From: an uncultured Alphaproteobacteria bacterium
GTDB taxonomy: Bacteria; Pseudomonadota; Alphaproteobacteria; RF32; CAG-239
Length of the DNA stretch: 64,000 bases
Assembly: GCA_910577205.1 (NCBI GenBank)
Contig: CAJTMA010000006.1
Location: forward strand, 4,770 to 68,769
Direction of reading: 5' to 3'
Shown: one piece after another, positions 13,744 to 49,037 of the stretch
Layout of the letters: each line of letters opens with the position of its first letter
Position numbering within the stretch: position 1 is the first letter of the stretch
Made by a program: the position numbers and the translations under genes
The notes under the pieces: generated by a model
Databases searched by the model: none
What the model was told of the DNA's origin: nothing
The model's input: only the letters and a program-made list of their open reading frames with translations

Positions 13744-14541
13744 ATGAATTTTATTGATTTGGGTTTAAGCAGCAAAACCGTGCAGGCTATTGACGAGTTT
13801 GGCATTACCGAGCCAACAACCGTGCAGGCTGATGTCATCCCTTCCATTTTGCAAGGCAAAGATGTCTTTACGATTGCGCCGGCAGGCTGCGGCAAAACAA
13901 CTTCTTATGTTTTTCCGTTGCTGGATGTTATTTCCGGTGCTGACGGAAAACAAAAAAATATCCTGATTATTACGCCGGATTCCGAGCAGTCGGTTGTTGT
14001 TTCTGACAGAATGGCCATCTTCAACAAATATCATGAAATTAATGAAGCGACCATCAAAGACAAGGCTGAAGATATTGATAACGAAGCCAACGTCATTATC
14101 GGTTCTCCCGAGCTTTTGGTTGAACTGGTTAACGAAGAAAAACTCGACTTAGCCAAAACCAATATTTTAGTAGTGGATGATATTAATCTCATCAAAAAGA
14201 AAAAACAGCTGAACAATCTGGAAAAAATTCTGGATTTATTGCCAGCCGATAAACAAAATATTGTCTATACCAACCGCCGCTCCAAAGAAACTCAAGGCAT
14301 TTTAGATAAGATTTTGAAAGCGCCGGAAGAAATCAAAGTTGACAAGGCAAAAGAACAGGAAGCCGAACTGACGGCTAAAAATCCTGCACAGGAAACTGCC
14401 GCTCCCAAACAAAACAATCACCGTTGCAAACAGCCGGTTAAAGACAGCGAAGCTTTGGAACTGGTGAAAAAATATGACTCGTTCAACGGCAAGACGCCAT
14501 CTTTCCTGATAAATAAAGGCATCATAGTTAATATCGATTAA
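13744..14541 (+). CDS. DEAD-box-like protein with only the N-terminal RecA domain and degenerate motifs
   Basis: The Q motif (PTTVQ) and Walker A (APAGCGKT) are present. Motif II is VVDDIN in place of DEAD, and motif III is absent. No helicase C domain follows. The C-terminus is K/E-rich. I set the start at MNFIDLG (13744). Confidence 0.6.
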   Translation: MNFIDLGLSSKTVQAIDEFGITEPTTVQADVIPSILQGKDVFTIAPAGCGKTTSYVFPLLDVISGADGKQKNILIITPDSEQSVVVSDRMAIFNKYHEINEATIKDKAEDIDNEANVIIGSPELLVELVNEEKLDLAKTNILVVDDINLIKKKKQLNNLEKILDLLPADKQNIVYTNRRSKETQGILDKILKAPEEIKVDKAKEQEAELTAKNPAQETAAPKQNNHRCKQPVKDSEALELVKKYDSFNGKTPSFLINKGIIVNID

Positions 14542-14577
14542 AAAAGTCCCCTTGCTTTGGCAAGGGGACTTTTATTT
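14541..14577. terminator. bidirectional intrinsic terminator
   Basis: AAAAAGTCCCCTTGC-tttg-GCAAGGGGACTTTTATTT between the convergent DEAD-like gene and XRE copy 1. Confidence 0.6.
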
Positions 14578-14821
14578 AGGAAATATCTTCGAGTTCTATC
14601 TTGATTTTGCAGTTGTAAAACCCGGCCAGATAACTGAGCATACCCCAGTGAACATAGGCCTTGCCGCTTTCCACTTGGTCAAAGTAATGCGGCGAAACAC
14701 TGACTTTCATCGCCAATTCGTCGAGCGTCATCTTTTGCGATAGCCGCCGCTCATAAAACTGCCGCCCTAAATGGGCAAAAGTTTCCTGATTATTTTTTCT
14801 GATTTGTTTTTTGGTTAACAT
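14576..14821 (-). CDS. XRE-family helix-turn-helix transcriptional regulator (module copy 1)
   Basis: The HTH region is QKMTLDELAMKVSVSPHYFDQVESG. It is near-identical to the ORF at 48743-49000, differing by V/I and S/A. I chose the start at the second ATG (MLTKKQ), which has a GGAG RBS. The track start is 14833. Confidence 0.75.
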   Translation of the reverse strand: MLTKKQIRKNNQETFAHLGRQFYERRLSQKMTLDELAMKVSVSPHYFDQVESGKAYVHWGMLSYLAGFYNCKIKIELEDIS

Positions 14822-14926
14822 TTCCAACTCCATTTTTGTTTTTTAATAAACCCCACTTAATCTCCCCTTAAATTAAGGGGAGAAAGTCATGTTGCTCAGC
14901 AACATGACCAGAGGGGTTTTATAAGT

Positions 14927-15089
14927 TAAACAAAACCTGCCTTTAGCTTCCTAAAGGCAGGGGAGTTCGAAACTGTAACAGAACAGTCCGGGTTATTCGC
15001 GCATAGCCTTATCTCCCCGGCTCCCCTCAAAAGGAGTCGTTCTTTTCTGTTAGGAGTTTCGATACTCCACAATCCGTCTCCGGACTGCG
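14927..15089 (-). ncRNA. candidate structured small RNA or cis-regulatory leader (module copy 1)
   Basis: The promoter is TTGCAA-16 nt-TACAAT (15096-15123 on the minus strand). A long-range helix pairs CAGTCCGG with CCGGACTG, and there are several internal hairpins. It ends in the GC-rich hairpin CCTGCCTTTA...TAAAGGCAGG followed by a T-run. The second copy at 48485-48648 carries stem-preserving substitutions. Confidence 0.5.
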
Positions 15090-15252
15090 AGAATGATTGT
15101 AAGGCAAAATAGTTAATTTGCAATGAAAAAAAGCCTTACCCGGCGGGGTATTGGTCTTATTTCAGTTGCCGAGATTACTTCGTCACGCGTTTCTTGTGAG
15201 GACTGTTCTGTAAAAAAATCTCCGGCTTGCGGAGATTCTTAAAAGGGTGTCC

Positions 15253-35838: not shown

Positions 35839-35913
35839 GCCGCTGTAGCTCAGTGGTAGAGCACGTCATTGGTAATGACGGGGTCGCAAGTCCGATTCTT
35901 GCCAGCGGCACCA
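35839..35913 (+). tRNA. tRNA-Thr (anticodon GGU), CCA encoded
   Basis: Manual fold. The acceptor stem GCCGCTG pairs with CAGCGGC. The D stem is GCTC/GAGC. The anticodon stem CGTCA/TGACG carries the loop TTGGTAA, giving anticodon GGT. The T stem is GCAAG/CTTGC. The T loop TCCGATT is slightly unusual. Confidence 0.8.
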
Positions 35914-35916
35914 TTA

Positions 35917-35945
35917 AAAAAGCCTCCTTTAGGGAGGCTTTTTTA
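35917..35945. terminator. intrinsic terminator after the tRNA
   Basis: AAAAAAGCCTCCC-ttta-GGGAGGCTTTTTTAA. Confidence 0.6.
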
Positions 35946-35949
35946 ATGG

Positions 35950-36100
35950 TTATCGTGGGACGGGCGGAATTGCGAAGCAAGTCTGACGAAGCCGGTTGGC
36001 GGCCATCAATCGGCGAAGGACGAGGAGCTAAAGCGACGAGGTCTTGAGCGGCAGCGAAAGATGCGCTCTACCGAAAGCCCCCGCACCTTCAAAGCCAGCG
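35950..36100. repeat. solitary degenerate unit of the 80-bp repeat family (left boundary of the AT-rich islet)
   Basis: Positions 35974-36002 (GAAGCAAGTCTGACGAAGCCGGTTGGCGG) are identical to 39968-39996 in the last unit of the tandem array. The downstream CCGCACCTTCAA motif is also shared with 40052-40063. Confidence 0.6.
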
Positions 36101-36116
36101 TCACCATTTTTAGAAA

Positions 36117-36230
36117 TGCACCTTTTGAGGTGTTTTTTTTGTTATGTAAACCAAGCCTTTCAACAGTCCGATTAATGAGTTTTTGAAATAAGCACTTTTG
36201 TAAGATTATCGGTTCTTTTCGTAGCAATGA
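36117..36230. repeat. ~110-bp direct repeat, copy A (terminator-like hairpin plus conserved tail)
   Basis: CACCTTTTGAGGTG followed by T8, then ...CAGTCCGATTAATGAG.... The diverged copy B lies at 36955-37070. Confidence 0.5.
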
Positions 36231-36832
36231 ATTACGTCATAAAAAAACGGCATCGTAACATTTAAAACAATATCAGGGTTTTGATAGAAATCCCGTAAGT
36301 AAGATTGTAATTCAACTTGAATCACATTCGGCTGATTGAAAGTTTTTTGATAACGCCCTGTAAAACCAACTTTTCCTGTATAATCAGGGTGATTGACCAC
36401 CGTTTTTAATTTATATTGTTTTGCAATTTGCAAAATATGATTTAAATAAGGATAATTCTTATCATCAAAATCAGCTATACCTAAACAGATATCATAATCA
36501 ATTTCTTGATTAAAACCATGAATATCTAAAAAGTAATGGTCTTGTAAATTGTGTTCTGCAACATAATCAGAGATGAGAAATTTGTAAGGGGTAAATTTTG
36601 TTCGCACTAAAGTTGATATTTTGTTTACAGCCCCAAGATGCTTAACAAGCGCACCAGTATATAGATCTGCGCATTTTTCTTTTTTATTACAAAAACTCCG
36701 TGTTGCGTGCGGCGCAGAAAGGATTAATGAAGAAGAATAATCTATAAACTCAAAAACATCTTCTCTTTCTTCTTGTCCATGAGAACGATTTAAGATGAAA
36801 CATTCGTTATATTTTTTTAGAGTATCAATCAT
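36206..36832 (-). CDS. hypothetical protein, possibly a zinc amidase of the PghP / N-formylglutamate-amidohydrolase-like fold
   Basis: 208 aa from AT-rich DNA. The motifs SAPHATRS and FLDIHGF resemble the His-containing zinc-site motifs of phage-type poly-gamma-glutamate hydrolases. This comes from memory and is not verified. The gene is flanked by ~110-bp direct repeats. Confidence 0.5.
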   Translation of the reverse strand: MIDTLKKYNECFILNRSHGQEEREDVFEFIDYSSSLILSAPHATRSFCNKKEKCADLYTGALVKHLGAVNKISTLVRTKFTPYKFLISDYVAEHNLQDHYFLDIHGFNQEIDYDICLGIADFDDKNYPYLNHILQIAKQYKLKTVVNHPDYTGKVGFTGRYQKTFNQPNVIQVELQSYLRDFYQNPDIVLNVTMPFFYDVIHCYEKNR

Positions 36833-36954
36833 AATATTAAGTATAGATATTTAATCGTTAAAAATCAGTGTCAAATAACTTAATTTTTACTCAACTCCTT
36901 AAACCTCTCGGTCTCATCAGTCCGATAATCGCACTGTATCGCGCACCATTTGTT

Positions 36955-37070
36955 AAAATACACCTTTTAAGGTGCTTTTTTGTTATGAAAACCAAGGTTT
37001 ACAGTCAGTCCGATTTGAGAGATTTTTAAATAGCATTTTTTAATAATCTATCGGACTTTTGCCAGAAAGA
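36955..37070. repeat. ~110-bp direct repeat, copy B
   Basis: CACCTTTTAAGGTG followed by CT6, then ...CAGTCAGTCCGATTTGAGAG.... It is about 70% identical to copy A. Confidence 0.5.
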
Positions 37071-37199
37071 TAGCAGGCACAAGTGTTTACTCTTCTTAAT
37101 CCGTCTTCAATAAATTTTAATTGTTTGATTTTACCATATATAAAATTTAATAGTAAGATTACCTTATGTACATTCTGATAGCTTTTTTTTGCACCTATC

Positions 37200-38051
37200 T
37201 TGCATTCATTATCTTGTATTATTGATGCACATTTTTCAAACAGTATTTTTAATAAAACAACATCTCTTATTTTTTACGCTACCATAACAAATATAATTAT
37301 TATTCCTTTTTTATTTTTGTTTGGAACTCCGACACTCCCTTCGTGGTCTTCATTAACGGTCATTTTCATCGTTGGGGCGATAGATGTATTTTATCAAATT
37401 CCGTATTATATTGCTTTGCGTAAGGTTGACACATCAATCACGGTTGCATTGTTTTCTCTTGGAAAAGTATCTGTTCCGATTTTAGCATATTTCATTGTTG
37501 GTGAAAAATTGAGTATAATGCAATATGTTGGGTTTGGCATTATTCTTTTATCAAGCTTTTTATTAAACTTTAATCGAAAACAGTTAAAATTAAATATTGC
37601 CTTTTTTCTTATGCTAATAGTGTCATTAGCTTTATCACTAGCTTCGGTATTGGAAAAATATTCTCTTAAAGAAATTGATTTTGTAACACTTATCTTCTGG
37701 ATGGTTTTATTTTCAACATCAATATCTTTTTCTTTCCTTTTTATTAAAAATATAAGGCAGGACATTATAGATACATTTCCGAAATATAAAAAAGCCATTT
37801 CACTGTTTTTAAGTAATGAGGTATTGAGTCAGGGAGGCTCATTGGCAATGATTATCGCTCTTTCTCAACTTCCTGTTTTAACTATAAAATCAATAAATTC
37901 ATCTCAAAGTATATTTACTTTATTGTTTGGTTTTGTTCTCTATAAAATTTTTGGAGATAGGTTTAAAGAAAATTTAACTCGAGATAAAGTTATAAAAAAA
38001 CTAATTTCTTTTATTTTTATTATGATAGGAATATATTTGGTTTTAAGTTAA
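37200..38051 (+). CDS. DMT/EamA-like 10-TM transporter
   Basis: 283 aa and very AT-rich. It has ten hydrophobic helices in a 5+5 arrangement typical of drug/metabolite transporters. Confidence 0.55.
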   Translation: MHSLSCIIDAHFSNSIFNKTTSLIFYATITNIIIIPFLFLFGTPTLPSWSSLTVIFIVGAIDVFYQIPYYIALRKVDTSITVALFSLGKVSVPILAYFIVGEKLSIMQYVGFGIILLSSFLLNFNRKQLKLNIAFFLMLIVSLALSLASVLEKYSLKEIDFVTLIFWMVLFSTSISFSFLFIKNIRQDIIDTFPKYKKAISLFLSNEVLSQGGSLAMIIALSQLPVLTIKSINSSQSIFTLLFGFVLYKIFGDRFKENLTRDKVIKKLISFIFIMIGIYLVLS

Positions 38052-38197
38052 CGTCAGTTTTATATTCCTGCTCAGGATTTTAAGTCTAATAATTGCTCAG
38101 CATAAATTTTTCCAGAAACTATACCTGCAGAAGCTTTGTGTTATTTTCAATTTTAGTCATAAAAAAGACTTGCTTTGAAAAAAGCAAGTCTTTTTTA

Positions 38198-38848
38198 TTA
38201 TATGCGGCTTTCAGTCCATAGTGGTGTTAAAGTTTCTTTATACTGAGTATAATCAGTATATAACTTTTCATATTTGACAATCAGGTGCTTTTTAGCCATC
38301 CGCCACTCCGGATGTTCTTTAGCATTGATAACATGGTAGCTGTTGTCAGACAAAATAAAATGGAAAAGGTAAAACTCTTCACCATAAATACGGCCTGTAT
38401 ATCTTCCATTAATTTTGCCGTTGCTTTTTGACATACCAGCACCGACACCGCCACCAATACCGAGAACACCTCCGCCACCTCCGATTGATGATAAGTCACC
38501 GTTCAAAGAACCGTGCTCTTGAGTATCGGCTTCTTTTTCCCAGGAACAGGCAATAATTTTCAGCTTTTTGCTAACATTATTCTTTTTTATAAATTCCTGA
38601 AGTTTGTCAGTTTCTGCTTGTCGTGTTGCCCGTTGTTTTTCCACCTCAATCAGGTAAACAGAATCAACAGACAATCTGATAGATTTTTGTACCGTTTGTT
38701 CACAATTCGCAAGATATTCTTCTATTTTCTTTTGTTCCGCTTGCAGTGTGGAGATTTGAGAATCAGAGATAAAGTTTTCTGCTTGATATTTTTGAAGCTG
38801 ATCTCTGGAGGCTTCCCCATATAAAAGCAATAGCTTCCCACACAACAA
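38198..38848 (-). CDS. hypothetical protein with a coiled-coil N-terminus and a glycine-zipper motif. It may be the 3' part of a frameshifted gene.
   Basis: The GGGGGVLGIGGGVGAGMS tract resembles a glycine zipper of the SlyB/17-kDa-antigen type. There is no signal peptide of its own. The first 127 bp overlap the upstream ORF in another frame. Confidence 0.4.
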   Translation of the reverse strand: MLCGKLLLLYGEASRDQLQKYQAENFISDSQISTLQAEQKKIEEYLANCEQTVQKSIRLSVDSVYLIEVEKQRATRQAETDKLQEFIKKNNVSKKLKIIACSWEKEADTQEHGSLNGDLSSIGGGGGVLGIGGGVGAGMSKSNGKINGRYTGRIYGEEFYLFHFILSDNSYHVINAKEHPEWRMAKKHLIVKYEKLYTDYTQYKETLTPLWTESRI

Positions 38849-39252
38849 CTTCCGATAAACATGATGGAAGCAATCAGCATACCCGAATTACTGCTTTCTT
38901 CATAAACTTGCCCTCTAAAATCAACTTTGTCCCGCGGTATAGATTTTAGAAATAAAAATATAGAAAAAACAATAGGTATGACCATCCAATGTTTGATATC
39001 ATCATATGAGCTACTCATTTTTTGCTTTTCGGCGGTTAATTCATTTTTCCGATTGGAAATCGTTTGAGTAATCGCCGATAACTTTTTTCTTTGCTCGTGA
39101 TAACCGTGCTTGCTTATTTCTTTATCGTAAAATTGCTTTTCGATAACCCGTTTATCGATGTTAGATAAATATCCTGTAGCGTTTTGCGCATACAACAAAC
39201 AAAATATCGGCATAAGTGCCGACAAAACTGCAATAATAATTTTCTTTTTCAT
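38722..39252 (-). CDS. hypothetical secreted or membrane protein (signal peptide plus two TM helices)
   Basis: MKKKIIIAVLSALMPIFCLLYAQN is a signal peptide. Hydrophobic segments follow (WMVIPIVFSIFLFL, MLIASIMFIGSCCVGSYCFY) and the tail is basic. Confidence 0.45.
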   Translation of the reverse strand: MKKKIIIAVLSALMPIFCLLYAQNATGYLSNIDKRVIEKQFYDKEISKHGYHEQRKKLSAITQTISNRKNELTAEKQKMSSSYDDIKHWMVIPIVFSIFLFLKSIPRDKVDFRGQVYEESSNSGMLIASIMFIGSCCVGSYCFYMGKPPEISFKNIKQKTLSLILKSPHCKRNKRK

Positions 39253-39423
39253 AATGTTTTATTTTAATTGTTAATATTTTTTAAAACAAAAAACATTTTT
39301 GAAACCAAGATTGATTACTCAATAATTGACTACAATAATGCTTTTTAATGAGTAAAGAATATCACATCCCCCTATTTTTGCAAGCACAAAAATTGACAAA
39401 AAAGGAGAGATAAGGAGTTTTGC

Positions 39424-40026
39424 GGCGGAGGGAGAGGCGCTTTATGGCGAGGGGTGAGCCGAGTTGCAAAGCAAGTTTGGCAAGCCGGTTGGCGGCGGTC
39501 ATCGGCGAAGCGAGAGGCGTTTTGAGGCGGAGGTTGAGCCGAGTTGCAAAGCAAGTTTGGCAAGCCTGCCGGTGGCGGTCATCGGCGGAGGGAGAGGCGC
39601 TTTGAGGCGGAGGTTGAGCCGCGTTGCGAAGCAAGTCCGACAAGCTGGTTGGCGGCAGTCATCGGCGGAGGGAGAGGCGTTTTATGGCGTGGGGTGAGCC
39701 GCGTTGCGAAGCTAGTCCGGCAAGCCGGTTGGCGGAGGTCATCGGTAGAGGATGTGCCGCAAAGCGCCACAGGTTGGGCTGAGTTGCGAAGCTAGTCCGG
39801 CAAGCCGGTTGGCGGAGGTCATCGGTAGAGGATGTGCCGCAAAGCGCCACAGGTTGAGCTGAGTTGCGAAGCAAGTCCGGCAAGCCGGTTGGCGGCGGTC
39901 ATCGGCGGAGGATGAGGAGCTTTGTGACGTGGGTTGAGCCGTGTTGTGAAGCAAGTCTGACGAAGCCGGTTGGCGGAGGTCATCGGCGGAGGATGAGGCG
40001 CTTTGTGGTGTGAGTTGAGCCATTAA
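39424..40026. repeat. tandem array of about 7.5 copies of an 80-bp repeat, not a CRISPR array
   Basis: Full units start at 39456, 39536, 39616, 39696, 39776, 39856 and 39936. A representative unit is GAGCCGAGTTGCAAAGCAAGTTTGGCAAGCCGGTTGGCGGCGGTCATCGGCGGAGGGAGAGGCGCTTTGAGGCGGAGGTT. Copies are about 85-97% identical and there are no unique spacers. Each unit contains the small palindromes TTGCaaaGCAA and GCCGgttggCGGC. Confidence 0.85.
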
Positions 40027-40032
40027 CAAAAG

Positions 40033-40063
40033 GTGCGGACGCTATCGCTATCCGCACCTTCAA
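40033..40063 (-). terminator. hairpin downstream of the autotransporter stop, a weak terminator
   Basis: AAGGTGCGGA-cgctatcgcta-TCCGCACCTT has a 10-bp stem. On the minus strand the hairpin is followed only by the short T-containing tract TTGTT. Confidence 0.35.
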
Positions 40064-40089
40064 TATCTGCCCTTTTCAGTCTAAACGCA

Positions 40090-43000
40090 CTACCAGTTAT
40101 AACTTGTACCCAAGCCTAAGGATGATGCCCGGTAATGACTGCCGAAGGTATGGTTGGCCCAGCCGTATGCTGAGAAGTAATCAGAGAAACCATAGCGGCC
40201 GCCTACTTCTAAACGTCCCAATGTTTGATTTTTCAGCACGTCCATTTTTCGCAAGCCAGTCACTTTTACCTCATCGCCATCATTAAATGTTTGAACCAAA
40301 ATTGGTTTGACATAAACATTGCCGTAGCCGTCATCGACTTCAAATGTCTTGGTCAATCTGGTACCAAATTCTGCTTCCATTTGTCTTAATGGGGTATACT
40401 GAGCTGTTTTGCCAGCGCTATCACTTGCATTATCATACTTGACCTGTGTATAAAAGAGGCCGACTTCCGGTGTGAAATAGAGCGATTTGTTCAGCGCATA
40501 ATCATAACCAAACGCGACACTACCACCAAACTCTGTTCCGTCAGTATTTGAGGTTATACCGTCTTTCGTTTTGATATCAACCTGCTGTATCCCGCCAAAC
40601 AAAGTCGCAAAAGCCCACCAATTTCTTTGATCGTAACGGTAATACAATCCGGCCAAATAGCTATCGATGTCAATTTCCGATTCTGTTACTGAGTAATAAT
40701 AACGGCCATAGCCATTCATGTCATAATTACCCTTACGATAAGAGAAGAACAATCCCAGTTTGTTATACAAGTCGTGTTGCAGCGTACCGCCGGCTTCCAA
40801 GCCCCAAACGTCAGATTCAACACCGACAGTTTCTTTATTCGTTGAAGAATAATAAACAGCGTTCGCCCACAGCGTATCAAACGGTTTACCATCCCAATAA
40901 AAATCATAGAAACCGCAAGACGGGCAATAAAGTCTGTTTCCCTGAACCTGACGGTCAATATTGCCAATCATTCCTCTGGTCTGCTCCAGTGCGGCTACAG
41001 GTAAAGCCTGATAAGCAATGACTTCAGGCACAACCTTACGCCCACGGCTAAATACCGGAGAAGAGATATTCGGAATATTGGGCACATCCGGGATATTCGG
41101 AACATCCGGAACGCCGGGAAGATCCGGCTGGGCATTCTTATCAGGATTGTCACTGTCGTTCATAACCAAATCCCATTGATTGGCATTATTTCCAAGGGAA
41201 GCGTATTTGACATCATACAAATAAGGGCTTCTGTAAACGCGCGAAACCACAAATGATCCCTCGTTACCGGTCGTATCATTTTCTGACTGTGCAAACAAGA
41301 TACTTCCCTTGCCGCGAATATCCGTGTCGGAAGAAGCATGAACAATCACTTTAGTCACACCTTCAACATTACCGGCGATATGCAACTCGTCCGCCGTCAT
41401 ATTATCCGGGTCAACATTAATATGCAGAAAACTGTCTGTCGCCGAATATCCTTTGAGGTTGACAATATCCCGATAATTGTTGGCCAAGCTAAAGACCGCA
41501 TTGTTCAATGTCAAAGTGGTTGCAGCGTCATCACGGTTGACAGAGCCATCCGTGTTCAACGCGGCAGCAAACGCACCTTTGCTATCCCAATTGCGGGCGC
41601 TTTGATCTTCGTGCTGATAGTCGCCGAAAACAAGAGATGTTCCGCTGACGGTTACACTTTCGGCATTGATAATATCGTTGTTCATTGCAATATATTGGGA
41701 AGTTGTTCCCTTAACGGCATCAACGACATCGTCTCCCGTAAAGTTGTATATTCCATTTCTCAAGTTATCATTAATAACCCAGCTGCCGCCGCCGGAAGTA
41801 TCAAAAGTAAATTCAGAAGTTGTATTTCCGAGCACAGCATTATAAATTTTGCCATAACTGCCGTTTTCCGTATAGTTGCCGGACATGAAATATGTATCAG
41901 CTCCGGAAGCGAATGTCATATTGCCAAGCGTATATACCGCGCCGCCCGATTTGGCATGATTGTTAAGGAAATTGCCGCTGATTTTGCCAAATACAGCTCC
42001 GGTATTGCCATAGATAGCGCCACCGTATTCGACAGCCGAGTTCCCGATAAAATCACCGCTGATAGTCCCAATGGTTTTATTCAAATCATTATAAATAGCG
42101 CCGCCGCGTTTTTCCGCTGAATTGGCGATGAAATCTCCGGAGATGTTTTTGATTTCCTTAGCGTTTTTGATAGCGCCGCCATGCCCCAATGTGGCATTGC
42201 CGATGAAGTTTCCGTTAATTTCATTAATGGTTCCCATACCGCCATTGTTAATAGCACCGCCGCCATAATCACTGACATTGCTGTTTGCCTTGTTAGCAAT
42301 AAAATCACCGGTAATTTTGTTAATTGTTCCTTCGTTTTCTATTGCCCCTGCTTTAATCCCTGCTGTATTGCCAATGAAATCTCCGGTAATATCGCCGATT
42401 TGCCCGTAATGGTAATTGTAAACAGCACCACCGATTGCAGCGGCCGAATTAGCGATAAAATTGCCGGTAATATCTTCAATAACCCGACTAGTGCTATTAT
42501 AAATAGCGCCGCCGGAGCCGTTTGTACCATCAACATGATTGCCGACGAAATCACCGGTTAGATTGCCCATCGTGCTGTTATTGCTAATAGCACCGCCGTT
42601 AGTTATTGCGGCATTGGCAATAAAGTTGCCGGTAACATCTCCGGTTGTTCCCTCATTGTAAATCGCACCGCCTGAGCCGCCTCCCGGAGCCTGCCCTGCT
42701 ATATTGCCAATAAAGTCACCGTTAATATTGCCAATTTGCGCGTTTTTATAGTTATAAATAGCGCCGCCGTTTCCTTTTTGGTCGCTTCGCGCCAGCCCTG
42801 TATAGTTGCCAACAAAGTCACTGTTTATTTCACCTATTGTTCCGGAGTTGTAAATAGCGCCGGCACCACTTGGAGCATAGTTGTGTACGAAACTCCCCTT
42901 AATACTGTCAATTGTTCCGCTGTTATTGATACCGCCGCCTTTTGAAGCACTTCTTTCGATATTTACAAAATCGGCATCAACATCACCGGTTAAACCTGTT

Positions 43001-43446: not shown

Positions 43447-43610
43447 TTTCTTGCCAAAAAATTAGTATATGTATCTTAAAATACATTAAATGTATAATGA
43501 ACGGGTTAAAAAATTACTAAAACACTTATGAGAGGGATTTTAATCAATGTTCCAAGCTTTGAATAAAACAAAAACACCGCAATTCAAATGAACTGCGGTG
43601 TTTTTGTTAG

Positions 43611-44234
43611 TTATGCAAACTCATTGTAAAGAAAATACATAGCCGCATACTCTTTTGTTTGTTCTTTGCCCTTTTCAGAAATTTGGGTACGGATATCTGC
43701 CAAGGCCATTAACGCAGAAATCCTTTTACCTTTCAAATCCGGCAAAGTTTCTCCAAAAGTTTTGGTCTGAAGTTTTTGCCACCAGGGTTGTTTTTGATCC
43801 TCGACGTTAAACTCCACAACAAAGCGGCGGCTGTATGAAACTTCCTCCTCTCCATTCGAGGTACGATACAGCTCAACATCATAGTTTCCGTCAGGAACAC
43901 TTGTGAATTCCAAACACCCTTTGGGAATAAGGTAAATCTCGCCGGAGAATGGAATGTACACGCCATCAAAATCAGACGTACTGCATTGGTTCAGGCAGCA
44001 TAGTACCATAATGGTATGTTCCCTGAAGAAACCATAGTCATAGCCAAGCTTCTTGCAGGCCGAATAATATTTTTCGGACACCCGGGCACAAACTAACTCG
44101 GTTTGCGCAACGCTGAACGGGGTGAATGAGAACGCAGCCGATACCATATCCTTTACTTCTTCGGCGCCAAACTTCTGGGATGCTTTCAAGATGCTGTCAT
44201 CACATGACATCTTCGCAATAATTATTGTATTCAT
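43611..44234 (-). CDS. hypothetical protein
   Basis: 207-aa ORF in an AT-rich patch. It has several Cys and no recognisable motif. Confidence 0.4.
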   Translation of the reverse strand: MNTIIIAKMSCDDSILKASQKFGAEEVKDMVSAAFSFTPFSVAQTELVCARVSEKYYSACKKLGYDYGFFREHTIMVLCCLNQCSTSDFDGVYIPFSGEIYLIPKGCLEFTSVPDGNYDVELYRTSNGEEEVSYSRRFVVEFNVEDQKQPWWQKLQTKTFGETLPDLKGKRISALMALADIRTQISEKGKEQTKEYAAMYFLYNEFA

Positions 44235-48416: not shown

Positions 48417-48450
48417 AAAAGCCCCTTGCCCAAGCAAGGGGCTTTTTTTC
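48417..48450 (+). terminator. murA intrinsic terminator
   Basis: AAAAGCCCCTTGC-ccaa-GCAAGGGGC followed by T7. Confidence 0.7.
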
Positions 48451-48478
48451 ATTGCAAATTAACTTTTTTCCCTTACAA
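48451..48478 (+). promoter_or_regulatory. near-consensus sigma70 promoter of the structured RNA (module copy 2)
   Basis: TTGCAA (48451-48456), a 16-nt spacer, then TACAAT (48473-48478). The same arrangement is found in copy 1. Confidence 0.6.
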
Positions 48479-48484
48479 TCATTC

Positions 48485-48648
48485 TCGCAGTCCGGAGACG
48501 GGTTGTGGGGTATGCAAACTCCTACAAGAAAAGAACGACTCCTTTTGAGGGGAGCCGGGGATATAAGGCTATGCGCGAATAACCCGGACTGTTCTTGTAC
48601 AGTTTGCAACTCCCCTGCCTTTAGACTTCTAAAGGCAGGTTTTGTTTT
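48485..48648 (+). ncRNA. candidate structured small RNA or cis-regulatory leader (module copy 2)
   Basis: It begins about 7 nt after the -10 element. The helix CAGTCCGG (~48486) pairs with CCGGACTG (~48586). Hairpins include GGGGTatgcaaACTCC and ACTGTtcttgtACAGT. The terminator is CCTGCCTTTAgacttcTAAAGGCAGG followed by TTTTGTTTT (48614-48648). The ORF-like reading 48452-48703 is not conserved at the protein level between the two copies. Confidence 0.5.
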
Positions 48649-48667
48649 AACTTATAAAACCCCTCTG

Positions 48668-48714
48668 GTCATGTTGCTAAGCAACATGACTTTCTCCCCT
48701 TAATTTAAGGGGAG
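48668..48714 (+). promoter_or_regulatory. two perfect palindromes between the RNA terminator and the XRE gene; candidate operators or mRNA hairpins
   Basis: GTCATGTTGC-taag-GCAACATGAC (48668-48690) and CTCCCCTTA-att-TAAGGGGAG (48694-48714). Both are conserved in copy 1 at 14886-14908 and 14862-14882, with only the loops differing. Confidence 0.5.
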
Positions 48715-48754
48715 ATTAAGTGGGGTTTATCTAAAAACAAAAATGGAGTTGGAA

Positions 48755-49000
48755 ATGTTAACCAAAAAACAAATCAGAAAAAATAATCAGGAAACTTTTG
48801 CCCATTTAGGGCGGCAGTTTTATGAGCGGCGGTTATCACAAAAGATGACGCTTGACGAATTGGCAATGAAAGTCAGTGTTTCGCCGCATTATTTCGATCA
48901 AGTAGAAAGCGGCAAGGCATATATCCACTGGGGAATGCTCAGTTATCTGGCTGGGTTTTACAACTGCAAAATCAAAATAGAACTGGAGGATATTGCTTAA
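48755..49000 (+). CDS. XRE-family helix-turn-helix transcriptional regulator (module copy 2)
   Basis: 81 aa from the second ATG, which has a GGAG RBS. It is near-identical to copy 1, and the HTH is MTLDELAMKVSVSPHYFDQVESG. Confidence 0.75.
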   Translation: MLTKKQIRKNNQETFAHLGRQFYERRLSQKMTLDELAMKVSVSPHYFDQVESGKAYIHWGMLSYLAGFYNCKIKIELEDIA

Positions 49001-49002
49001 AT

Positions 49003-49037
49003 AAAAAGCCCCTTGCCAAAAGCAAGGGGCTTTTTTT
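49003..49037. terminator. bidirectional intrinsic terminator
   Basis: AAAAAGCCCCTTGC-caaaa-GCAAGGGGC followed by T7. It lies between the XRE gene and the convergent ORF at 49036-49506. Confidence 0.65.

Follow-up and report, generated by a model that had tools for sequence, protein, structure and literature searches.

An 80-bp tandem repeat array lies next to an autotransporter gene in a 64,000-nt stretch of DNA (hereafter the window; contig CAJTMA010000006.1, positions 4,770 to 68,769) from an uncultured alphaproteobacterium. The array is real, but it is an ordinary non-coding repeat whose copy number varies between strains. We read it as a non-coding minisatellite (variable number of tandem repeats, VNTR) without demonstrated function of its own, and this is the best of the readings that we considered. 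It is probably neutral and was probably born, by slippage or unequal recombination, within a decayed attachment-type (att-type) module. We call this module M; it is a 193-nt non-coding module of a tRNA-Thr integration hotspot in the same window. The source organism is an uncultured gut alphaproteobacterium resembling 'Candidatus Scatocola': in the window, the seryl-tRNA synthetase and MurA belong to 90%-identity clusters that include 'Candidatus Scatocola faecipullorum', 'Azospirillum sp. CAG:260' and metagenome-assembled genomes (MAGs) labelled Alphaproteobacteria.

Tandem Repeats Finder places the array at 39423-40021, with a period of 80, 7.5 copies, 82% matches and a score of 646, and a repeat search of the window returned seven copies spaced by exactly 80 nt. 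This agrees with the array of about 7.5 units proposed in an earlier reading made without database searches (the sequence-only reading). The seven full units described there are present (one of them has 81 nt), but the partial units reported at both ends reduce to a single 38-nt partial at the right end, if the phase starts at 39423. Pairwise identity among the units is 66-96% rather than 85-97%, and the two adjacent units reported as almost identical are indeed near-twins: units 5 and 6 are 96% identical and differ at 3 of 80 positions. In both of them, at least 13 nt (39756-39770 and 39836-39850) are the reverse complement of the version found in the other units (GCCGCAAAGCGCCAC versus GGCGCTTTGNGGC). 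The entire 80 nt repeats and the units abut without spacers, and the array is thus minisatellite-like and not a clustered regularly interspaced short palindromic repeat (CRISPR) locus, as had been suggested. With 60-63% GC and a G-rich + strand, it stands out from the window as a whole (45% GC) and from the neighbouring AT-rich islet (26-36% GC). Its location between this islet and the autotransporter terminator was correctly described; we assign the terminator to the hairpin at 40032-40058, because a T-run is present on the minus strand only. The short palindromes said to occur in each unit are less regular: TTGC-N3-GCAA is intact in four of the seven units, and GCCG-N5-CGGC in two. Hairpins of 4 bp number 1.7 per unit compared with 0.9 +/- 1.1 in shuffled units, within one standard deviation. 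Being neither above chance nor conserved between units, the palindromes do not bear out their proposed role as protein-binding sites. The repeat search and self-BLAST found no inverted repeat bounding the array or M, and the units have no terminal inverted repeats.

We compared the array with M and with related loci retrieved from metagenome assemblies by exact-protein look-up (designated L with a number). In the window, an intact copy of M directly follows tRNA-Thr and comprises a terminator hairpin (T1), a GC-rich body, a hairpin tail and a tRNA-like end (Table 1). Within the body, two near-identical 12-mers lie 80-82 nt apart and bracket one unit length, the segment that was amplified; the second of them, CAGCGAAAGATG, reads TTGCGAAAGATG in L037, a locus from a related species. 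In an alignment of 35925-36140, homology of this proximal copy to the right end of the array covers about 1.5 units (35951-36093) and runs on into the autotransporter terminator, where the common 12-mer CCGCACCTTCAA is found again at 40052-40063. The repeat search likewise reported a further unit copy at 35954-36002, after tRNA-Thr and the terminator hairpin. Positions 51-184 of a hidden Markov model (HMM) of M match 39936-40068, a stretch from the last unit through the half unit to the terminator (E = 1.1e-15); individual array units match at E values of 1e-4 to 1e-9, and a six-sequence alignment is collinear with M through the tail. The collinearity and the HMM matches together indicate that the array arose by tandem amplification of a segment inside a conserved module that already existed.

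M is found in other strains and species. L037, whose autotransporter is 81% identical to that of the window, contains two copies that are 85% identical to the M of the window, one after the tRNA and one after a tRNA-like end that closes a cassette, and in each case a T2 module (the start of a cassette, see below) comes next. The copies in the two species differ by frame-shifting indels, and M is thus not protein-coding. The distal, array-bearing copy is the only M-derived sequence in L043, and in L025 the expanded M retains its tRNA-like end, which is followed by a T2 cassette. In a third species group (L019, L021, L023), unit-like sequence again comes after T1: aligned as a dimer, the unit consensus scores 36 against the post-T1 sequence of the sister species, compared with 18.2 +/- 2.8 for 300 dinucleotide shuffles. 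There are no tandem repeats at the same spot in the sister species. These species carry a small open reading frame (ORF) without family (134 aa on the minus strand of L020, 5323-5727; 95-aa ORFs in L019, L021 and L023), and in three strains its 5' end is replaced by T1 and unit-like sequence. The junction from which the repeat unit was formed must therefore be older than the separation of these species. We also considered, and rejected, the unit as a coding part of this small ORF, for it spans the junction and the 5' end of the ORF but M is non-coding. A decayed copy of tRNA-Thr was rejected as well, since only GCAAGTCCG is common to both and 38 of 500 shuffles score as well. The left flank of the array gives a suggestive alignment to a decayed tRNA end plus T1, which is not significant (32 of 500 shuffles).

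Comparison among strains revealed alleles of 0.5, 3.3, 4.5, 6.5 and 7.5 units. L012, with a flank identity of 100%, has the same 7.5 units as the window; the same array thus appears in independent assemblies and is not an assembly artefact. Three other loci with identical flanks (100%; L007, L008, L010) are on contigs that break inside the array. L005 and L006, which come from two samples and two assemblers, have flanks 99.4-99.7% identical and 6.5 units, one twin unit being missing. L043, with an autotransporter protein 99% identical to that of the window, has 4.5 units. L011 and L013 (flank identity 98.8-99.7%) are left with 0.5 unit, a lone 38-nt half unit whose sequence exactly matches the terminal half unit of L043, and L025 (96.6%) has 3.3 units and a different right flank. 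The existence of the 0.5-unit allele implies that the array is dispensable for its neighbouring genes. Copy number follows strain divergence, and classical phase variation, as entertained in the sequence-only reading, is therefore unlikely. The array also departs from phase-variable contingency loci, in which repeats of 1-9 nt lie in an ORF or between promoter hexamers and switch within a strain, in that its unit has 80 nt, lies outside ORFs and has no promoter hexamers.

The two 12-mers of M may have given rise to a first duplication, through slippage during replication or unequal recombination between them. Later rounds of unequal crossing-over and gene conversion could then have expanded, contracted and partly homogenised the array, which would account for the close similarity of units 5 and 6 and for how the short inverted variant spread. 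The main effect of the array would be structural: roughly 600 bp homologous to the proximal M in direct orientation would, with that copy, bracket the 3.3-kb AT-rich cassettes and could therefore promote their deletion, duplication or exchange. No strain in which the islet had been deleted by recombination between the proximal M and the array was seen among the contigs retrieved.

Several points weigh against a neutral minisatellite. M itself is probably functional, for example as an att arm, because its conservation between species (85%) equals that of neighbouring coding DNA and because the window and L037 have T1 and a 25-nt core in common at 100% identity; the amplified piece might thus retain binding sites. 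That the array has no function is an argument from silence. The copy numbers were all obtained from short-read metagenome assemblies, in which tandem repeats can be collapsed, and many contigs end inside the array. Other arrays may be located elsewhere in the genome of the organism, beyond the window and the fetched loci.

We searched the array for signs of a coding, RNA or promoter function. All reading frames of the consensus are interrupted and 80 is not a multiple of 3. When a translated unit was compared with 5.8 billion proteins, the sole match was another spurious, array-derived ORF, in L025. The ORFs across the array are thus artefacts, as had been thought. Counts of uptake sequences and frequent k-mers returned nothing, and PADLOC and NCBIfam searches of neighbouring ORFs returned nothing useful. 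The array could alternatively give rise to a non-coding RNA, a + strand transcript of about 650 nt with two to three GGAGG motifs per module that might, as a sponge, soak up either an RNA-binding protein or C-rich anti-Shine-Dalgarno small RNAs. The + strand of the array indeed folds somewhat more stably than shuffled sequences (z = -3.2, 20 shuffles), weak promoter-like hexamers are found on this strand upstream of the array (39299-39339), and a good + strand intrinsic terminator comes after the module in M (36118-36140) and in L025. The additional stability, however, arises largely because direct and inverted versions of one segment pair with each other, and the minus strand does not fold better than shuffles (z = -0.86). 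Compensatory changes affect only 1 of 28 predicted pairs in the six-sequence alignment, in which sequences are few and very similar. Neither the array, even at E = 10, nor the body of M was matched in a search of Rfam 15; the tRNA was matched, the other matches being sub-threshold, hairpin-type hits at T1 in M. The promoter-like sites in the region are not above expectation (17 compared with 12.6 +/- 3.8 in shuffles), the hairpin after the array of the window has no T-run on the + strand, and the array is dispensable in the 0.5-unit allele. We therefore consider an RNA function very unlikely.

The array might instead be a regulatory spacer whose copy number tunes expression of the 176-aa gene to its left or insulates this gene against read-through from the autotransporter gene. 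It is suitably placed for this, lying 170 nt upstream of the 176-aa gene and immediately behind the terminator of the autotransporter gene, and its copy number varies between strains. However, the 170-nt stretch between the array and the 176-aa gene, which holds the likely promoter, is intact in all alleles, being identical or nearly so. No promoter-like hexamer pair is found inside the array on either strand, and a promoter role, also raised in the sequence-only reading, is thus not borne out. In addition, 80 nt does not correspond to a whole number of helical turns, the variation in copy number tracks strain divergence, and in L025 the array has a different right-hand context. We consider a spacer function highly improbable.

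An array of recombination sites must also be weighed. Here, the units would keep a degenerate copy of the motif recognised by the site-specific recombinase that loads cassettes at tRNA-Thr, and form a multi-site att arm, an accessory region or secondary sites of integration and excision. The heptamer GTCCGAT is concentrated in the hotspot, where 5 copies fall within 1.2 kb, compared with 3 in the other 63 kb; they are located in the T-loop of the tRNA, in the two T2 modules (two copies in one of them) and in a tRNA-like end. The array units contain the related GCAAGTCCGG/A, reading GCAAGTCCGGC or GCAAGTCCGAC where the tRNA has GCAAGTCCGAT. M always lies at ...CACCA junctions, its 3' end is the insertion point of T2 cassettes, and in L025 a tRNA-like end and a T2 cassette come directly after the expanded M. 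Yet unit and tRNA do not resemble each other significantly (38 of 500 shuffles score equally well), and the motif is degenerate in units 1, 2 and 7 (TTTGG, TCTGAC). Pfam searches found no recombinase gene among the immediate neighbours of the array, an excision junction restoring the order tRNA, M, autotransporter gene was not seen in the retrieved contigs, and alleles of 0.5 to 7.5 units share the same neighbouring cassette. We regard such an array of sites as unlikely. A more far-reaching proposal is that M and the units are the recombination module of an undescribed, integron-like cassette system of gut Alphaproteobacteria, with a recombinase encoded elsewhere and serial loading at tRNA-Thr of single-gene cassettes that have a conserved T2 start and an end mimicking a tRNA, in which the array would multiply sites for the recombinase or an accessory protein and so control cassette capture, excision or shuffling. 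We consider this proposal improbable. In integrons, too, conserved non-coding sequences (attC sites) separate single-gene cassettes. The units, however, have no imperfect-palindrome (R''-L''...L'-R') architecture but only 4-bp hairpins, in a minority of units and at chance frequency, and the minus strand of the array shows no extra fold stability. There is no intI among the ORFs next to the array (Pfam), and the junctions mimic a tRNA 3' end. The array may serve as a recombination target, as the sequence-only reading suggested, because its unit derives from an att-associated module.

The unit could finally be a generic dispersed element of the repetitive extragenic palindromic (REP), mycobacterial interspersed repetitive unit (MIRU) or MITE (miniature inverted-repeat transposable element) type, tandemly arrayed here by chance. 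A second copy is found 3.4 kb away, and copies of M recur in other species. All copies, however, lie in the tRNA-Thr hotspot, both in the window, where none is found elsewhere in the 64 kb, and in the 40 fetched loci. The unit 21-mer AAGCCGGTTGGCGGNGGTCAT has no related genome among 185,579 species representatives and gives four single chance matches in unrelated high-GC MAGs. Scans of metagenomes of the Joint Genome Institute (JGI) and of viral data with unit patterns yielded nothing or single chance matches, and blastn searches of plasmid and phage collections gave no match to the unit. The units have no terminal inverted repeats, and M is bounded by a terminator hairpin and a tRNA-like 3' end, in contrast to a MITE. 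It is thus likely, though not proven, that the unit is not dispersed, and we give a generic dispersed element next to no credence.

Among described systems, bacterial VNTRs such as MIRU and the BrickBuilt minisatellite come closest to the array. The intergenic mosaic elements and minimal mobile elements of Neisseria are similar to the array in that repeat arrays border strain-variable cassettes and can supply homology for their exchange, but the Neisseria arrays are mosaics of different repeat types with dRS3 inverted-repeat flanks, are dispersed in the genome and have no sequence similarity to our array. MIRUs occupy dozens of dispersed loci per genome, whereas the present unit is seen in one hotspot only and its origin can be traced to one module. 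The array has the properties that define VNTRs, namely spacer-free units in the range of about 10-100 bp, a non-coding sequence and a polymorphic copy number. Bacterial minisatellites such as MIRU are likewise arranged head-to-tail, intergenic and non-coding, with units of tens of bases and a strain-variable copy number (PMC3635867). The BrickBuilt minisatellite of Porphyromonas gingivalis lies inside a MITE, has 23-nt units and inverted-repeat ends, is present 19 times per genome and has promoter activity (PMC4596501). As in BrickBuilt, our array is located in a small, non-autonomous, intergenic module with a 'leader' and a 'tail', and its repeat number is variable. Here, however, the units have 80 nt and no terminal inverted repeats, the host module is of the att type with tRNA-like ends, and there is no promoter signal.

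The array is part of a variable region that extends from tRNA-Thr to murA and differs in content in every strain and species examined, with restriction-modification systems, large serine recombinases, a tyrosine integrase, Fic and NERD proteins and transporters among its contents; L022 and L024 are examples of loci with hotspot integrases or serine recombinases. Its variable DNA at tRNA-Thr consists of small integrase-less cassettes (0.2-3 kb, often with one gene), and M recurs between cassettes in related species. Each cassette starts with a T2 module, about 112 nt long and containing a + strand intrinsic terminator (the two copies in the window are 79% identical), and ends with a 29-30-nt tRNA-like 3' end, AGTCCGATAA...GCGCACCA; this pattern of ends is also found in L037, L021 and L043. 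The small-cassette build was noted in the window (35839-39422) and in L037, L019-L024, L039 and L043. The order in the window is tRNA-Thr, M, cassette 1, cassette 2, left flank, array, M tail/terminator and autotransporter gene (Table 1). In L037, M is directly followed by the T2-EamA cassette, 90.6% identical to that of the window, and cassette 1 is absent. Cassette 1 is thus an insertion exactly at the junction between ...CACCA and T2, and its presence or absence at this junction between species is the only evidence bearing on possible excision or mobilisation in cis by the integrase of a related element. Pfam found only EamA or no family, and no integrase domain, in the islet ORFs neighbouring the array.

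Table 1. Coordinates in the window of the tRNA-Thr hotspot, module M, the cassettes, the array and the autotransporter gene
Feature	Position	Strand	Description and evidence
tRNA-Thr(GGT)	35839-35913	+	ARAGORN; Rfam tRNA, 70.9 bits
Last 13 nt of tRNA-Thr, GCCAGCGGCACCA	35901-35913	+	copied at cassette junctions
M, intact proximal copy	35914-36106	+	directly after tRNA-Thr; repeat family, alignments, L037 copies
T1 terminator hairpin of M	35914-35949	+	immediately after tRNA ...CACCA
GC-rich body of M	12-mers at 35970-35981 and 36052-36063		one proto-unit between 12-mers TTGCGAAGCAAG and CAGCGAAAGATG
Hairpin tail of M	12-mer at 36081-36092	+	with CCGCACCTTCAA
tRNA-like end of M, GCCAGCGTCACCA	36094-36106	+	copy of the last 13 nt of the tRNA
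Cassette 1	36107-36948		T2, 208-aa ORF and tRNA-like end; self-BLAST, BLAST of window versus L037
T2 module of cassette 1	36107-36218		terminator hairpin on +
Intrinsic terminator in first T2	36118-36140	+
208-aa ORF of cassette 1	36206-36832	-
tRNA-like 3' end of cassette 1, AGTCCGATAATCGCACTGTATCGCGCACCA	36919-36948
Cassette 2	36949-39252		remainder of AT-rich islet; T2, EamA, two ORFs
Second T2 module	36949-37060		T2 HMM match
EamA-family transporter	37200-38051	+	Pfam EamA, 1.6e-15
ORF of cassette 2	38198-38848	-	without family
ORF of cassette 2, 176 aa	38722-39252	-	without family; secreted or lipoprotein
Left flank	39253-39422		start of 176-aa gene to array; presumably holds the promoter of that gene; allele comparison, promoter scan
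Array units 1-7	starts at 39423, 39503, 39583, 39663, 39743, 39823, 39903	+	last unit 81 nt; Tandem Repeats Finder, unit table
Partial unit, 38 nt	39984-40021	+	right end only, phase starting at 39423
M-tail homologue	40022-40068		right of array; alignments, M HMM, sequence
Hairpin GGTGCGGA-N11-TCCGCACC	40032-40058		T-run after hairpin on minus strand only
Autotransporter gene, 1118 aa	40090-43446	-	Pfam autotransporter beta-domain, 1.1e-22; 3' end abuts array

These cassettes recall CIMEs (cis-mobilizable elements), which have no integrase and accrete in tandem at tRNA genes (review PMC5704250). As in CIMEs, the host region is a stack of integrase-less elements beside the tRNA gene, with copies of a tRNA 3' end as their boundaries (PMC5704250), and integrase-bearing islands are found at the same site in other strains. 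M and the cassettes have tRNA 3'-end boundaries and no integrase or transfer genes inside, and M has no conserved ORF. They differ from CIMEs in that the cassettes are very small and share a T2 start and a tRNA-like end. To our knowledge, tandem repeat expansion inside a CIME module is not a described feature.

Several further features of the region were recorded. In L034 (SRR32607912), the last 35 nt of the contig read from the tRNA-Thr 3' end into TTTTTAAGATTTCCGC... in place of T1, indicating that a different element lies directly at the tRNA there. Several public assemblies list a 130-aa ORF on the opposite strand (37406-37798, minus) instead of EamA, probably a mis-call. Two inverted repeats of about 600 bp (14540-15135 and 48440-49036), 89-92% complementary and 33 kb apart, bracket the hotspot region; murA and a 156-aa ORF flank one of the arms, at a place where a small HTH_31 gene is called in other assemblies. 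Around murA, the window and L037 have different gene orders, which an inversion could explain. Near-perfect palindromes are located between EamA and the next ORF (38159-38198; 40 nt, 90%) and from the autotransporter start to the stop of a 207-aa ORF (43558-43619; 62 nt, 84%); both probably represent terminators working in two directions or sites resembling operators. In the passenger region of the autotransporter there are an 18-bp tandem repeat (41071-41111, 2.3 copies) that encodes a P-D/N-V/I-P-N-I motif, and several families of 27-40-nt internal repeats (42089-42778) that are typical of beta-helix passenger domains.

The locus offers a worked example of the birth of a bacterial minisatellite, in which a single-copy progenitor, short flanking direct repeats and alleles of expansion and contraction are all visible. 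It explains why short-read assemblies break at this locus in the lineage, and offers a marker, ready for use, with which strains of an uncultured gut lineage can be typed. It also points to a tRNA-Thr hotspot that accumulates very small integrase-less cassettes with tRNA-like ends. Current understanding is left unchanged by the array, unless its units prove to be functional recombination or RNA modules.

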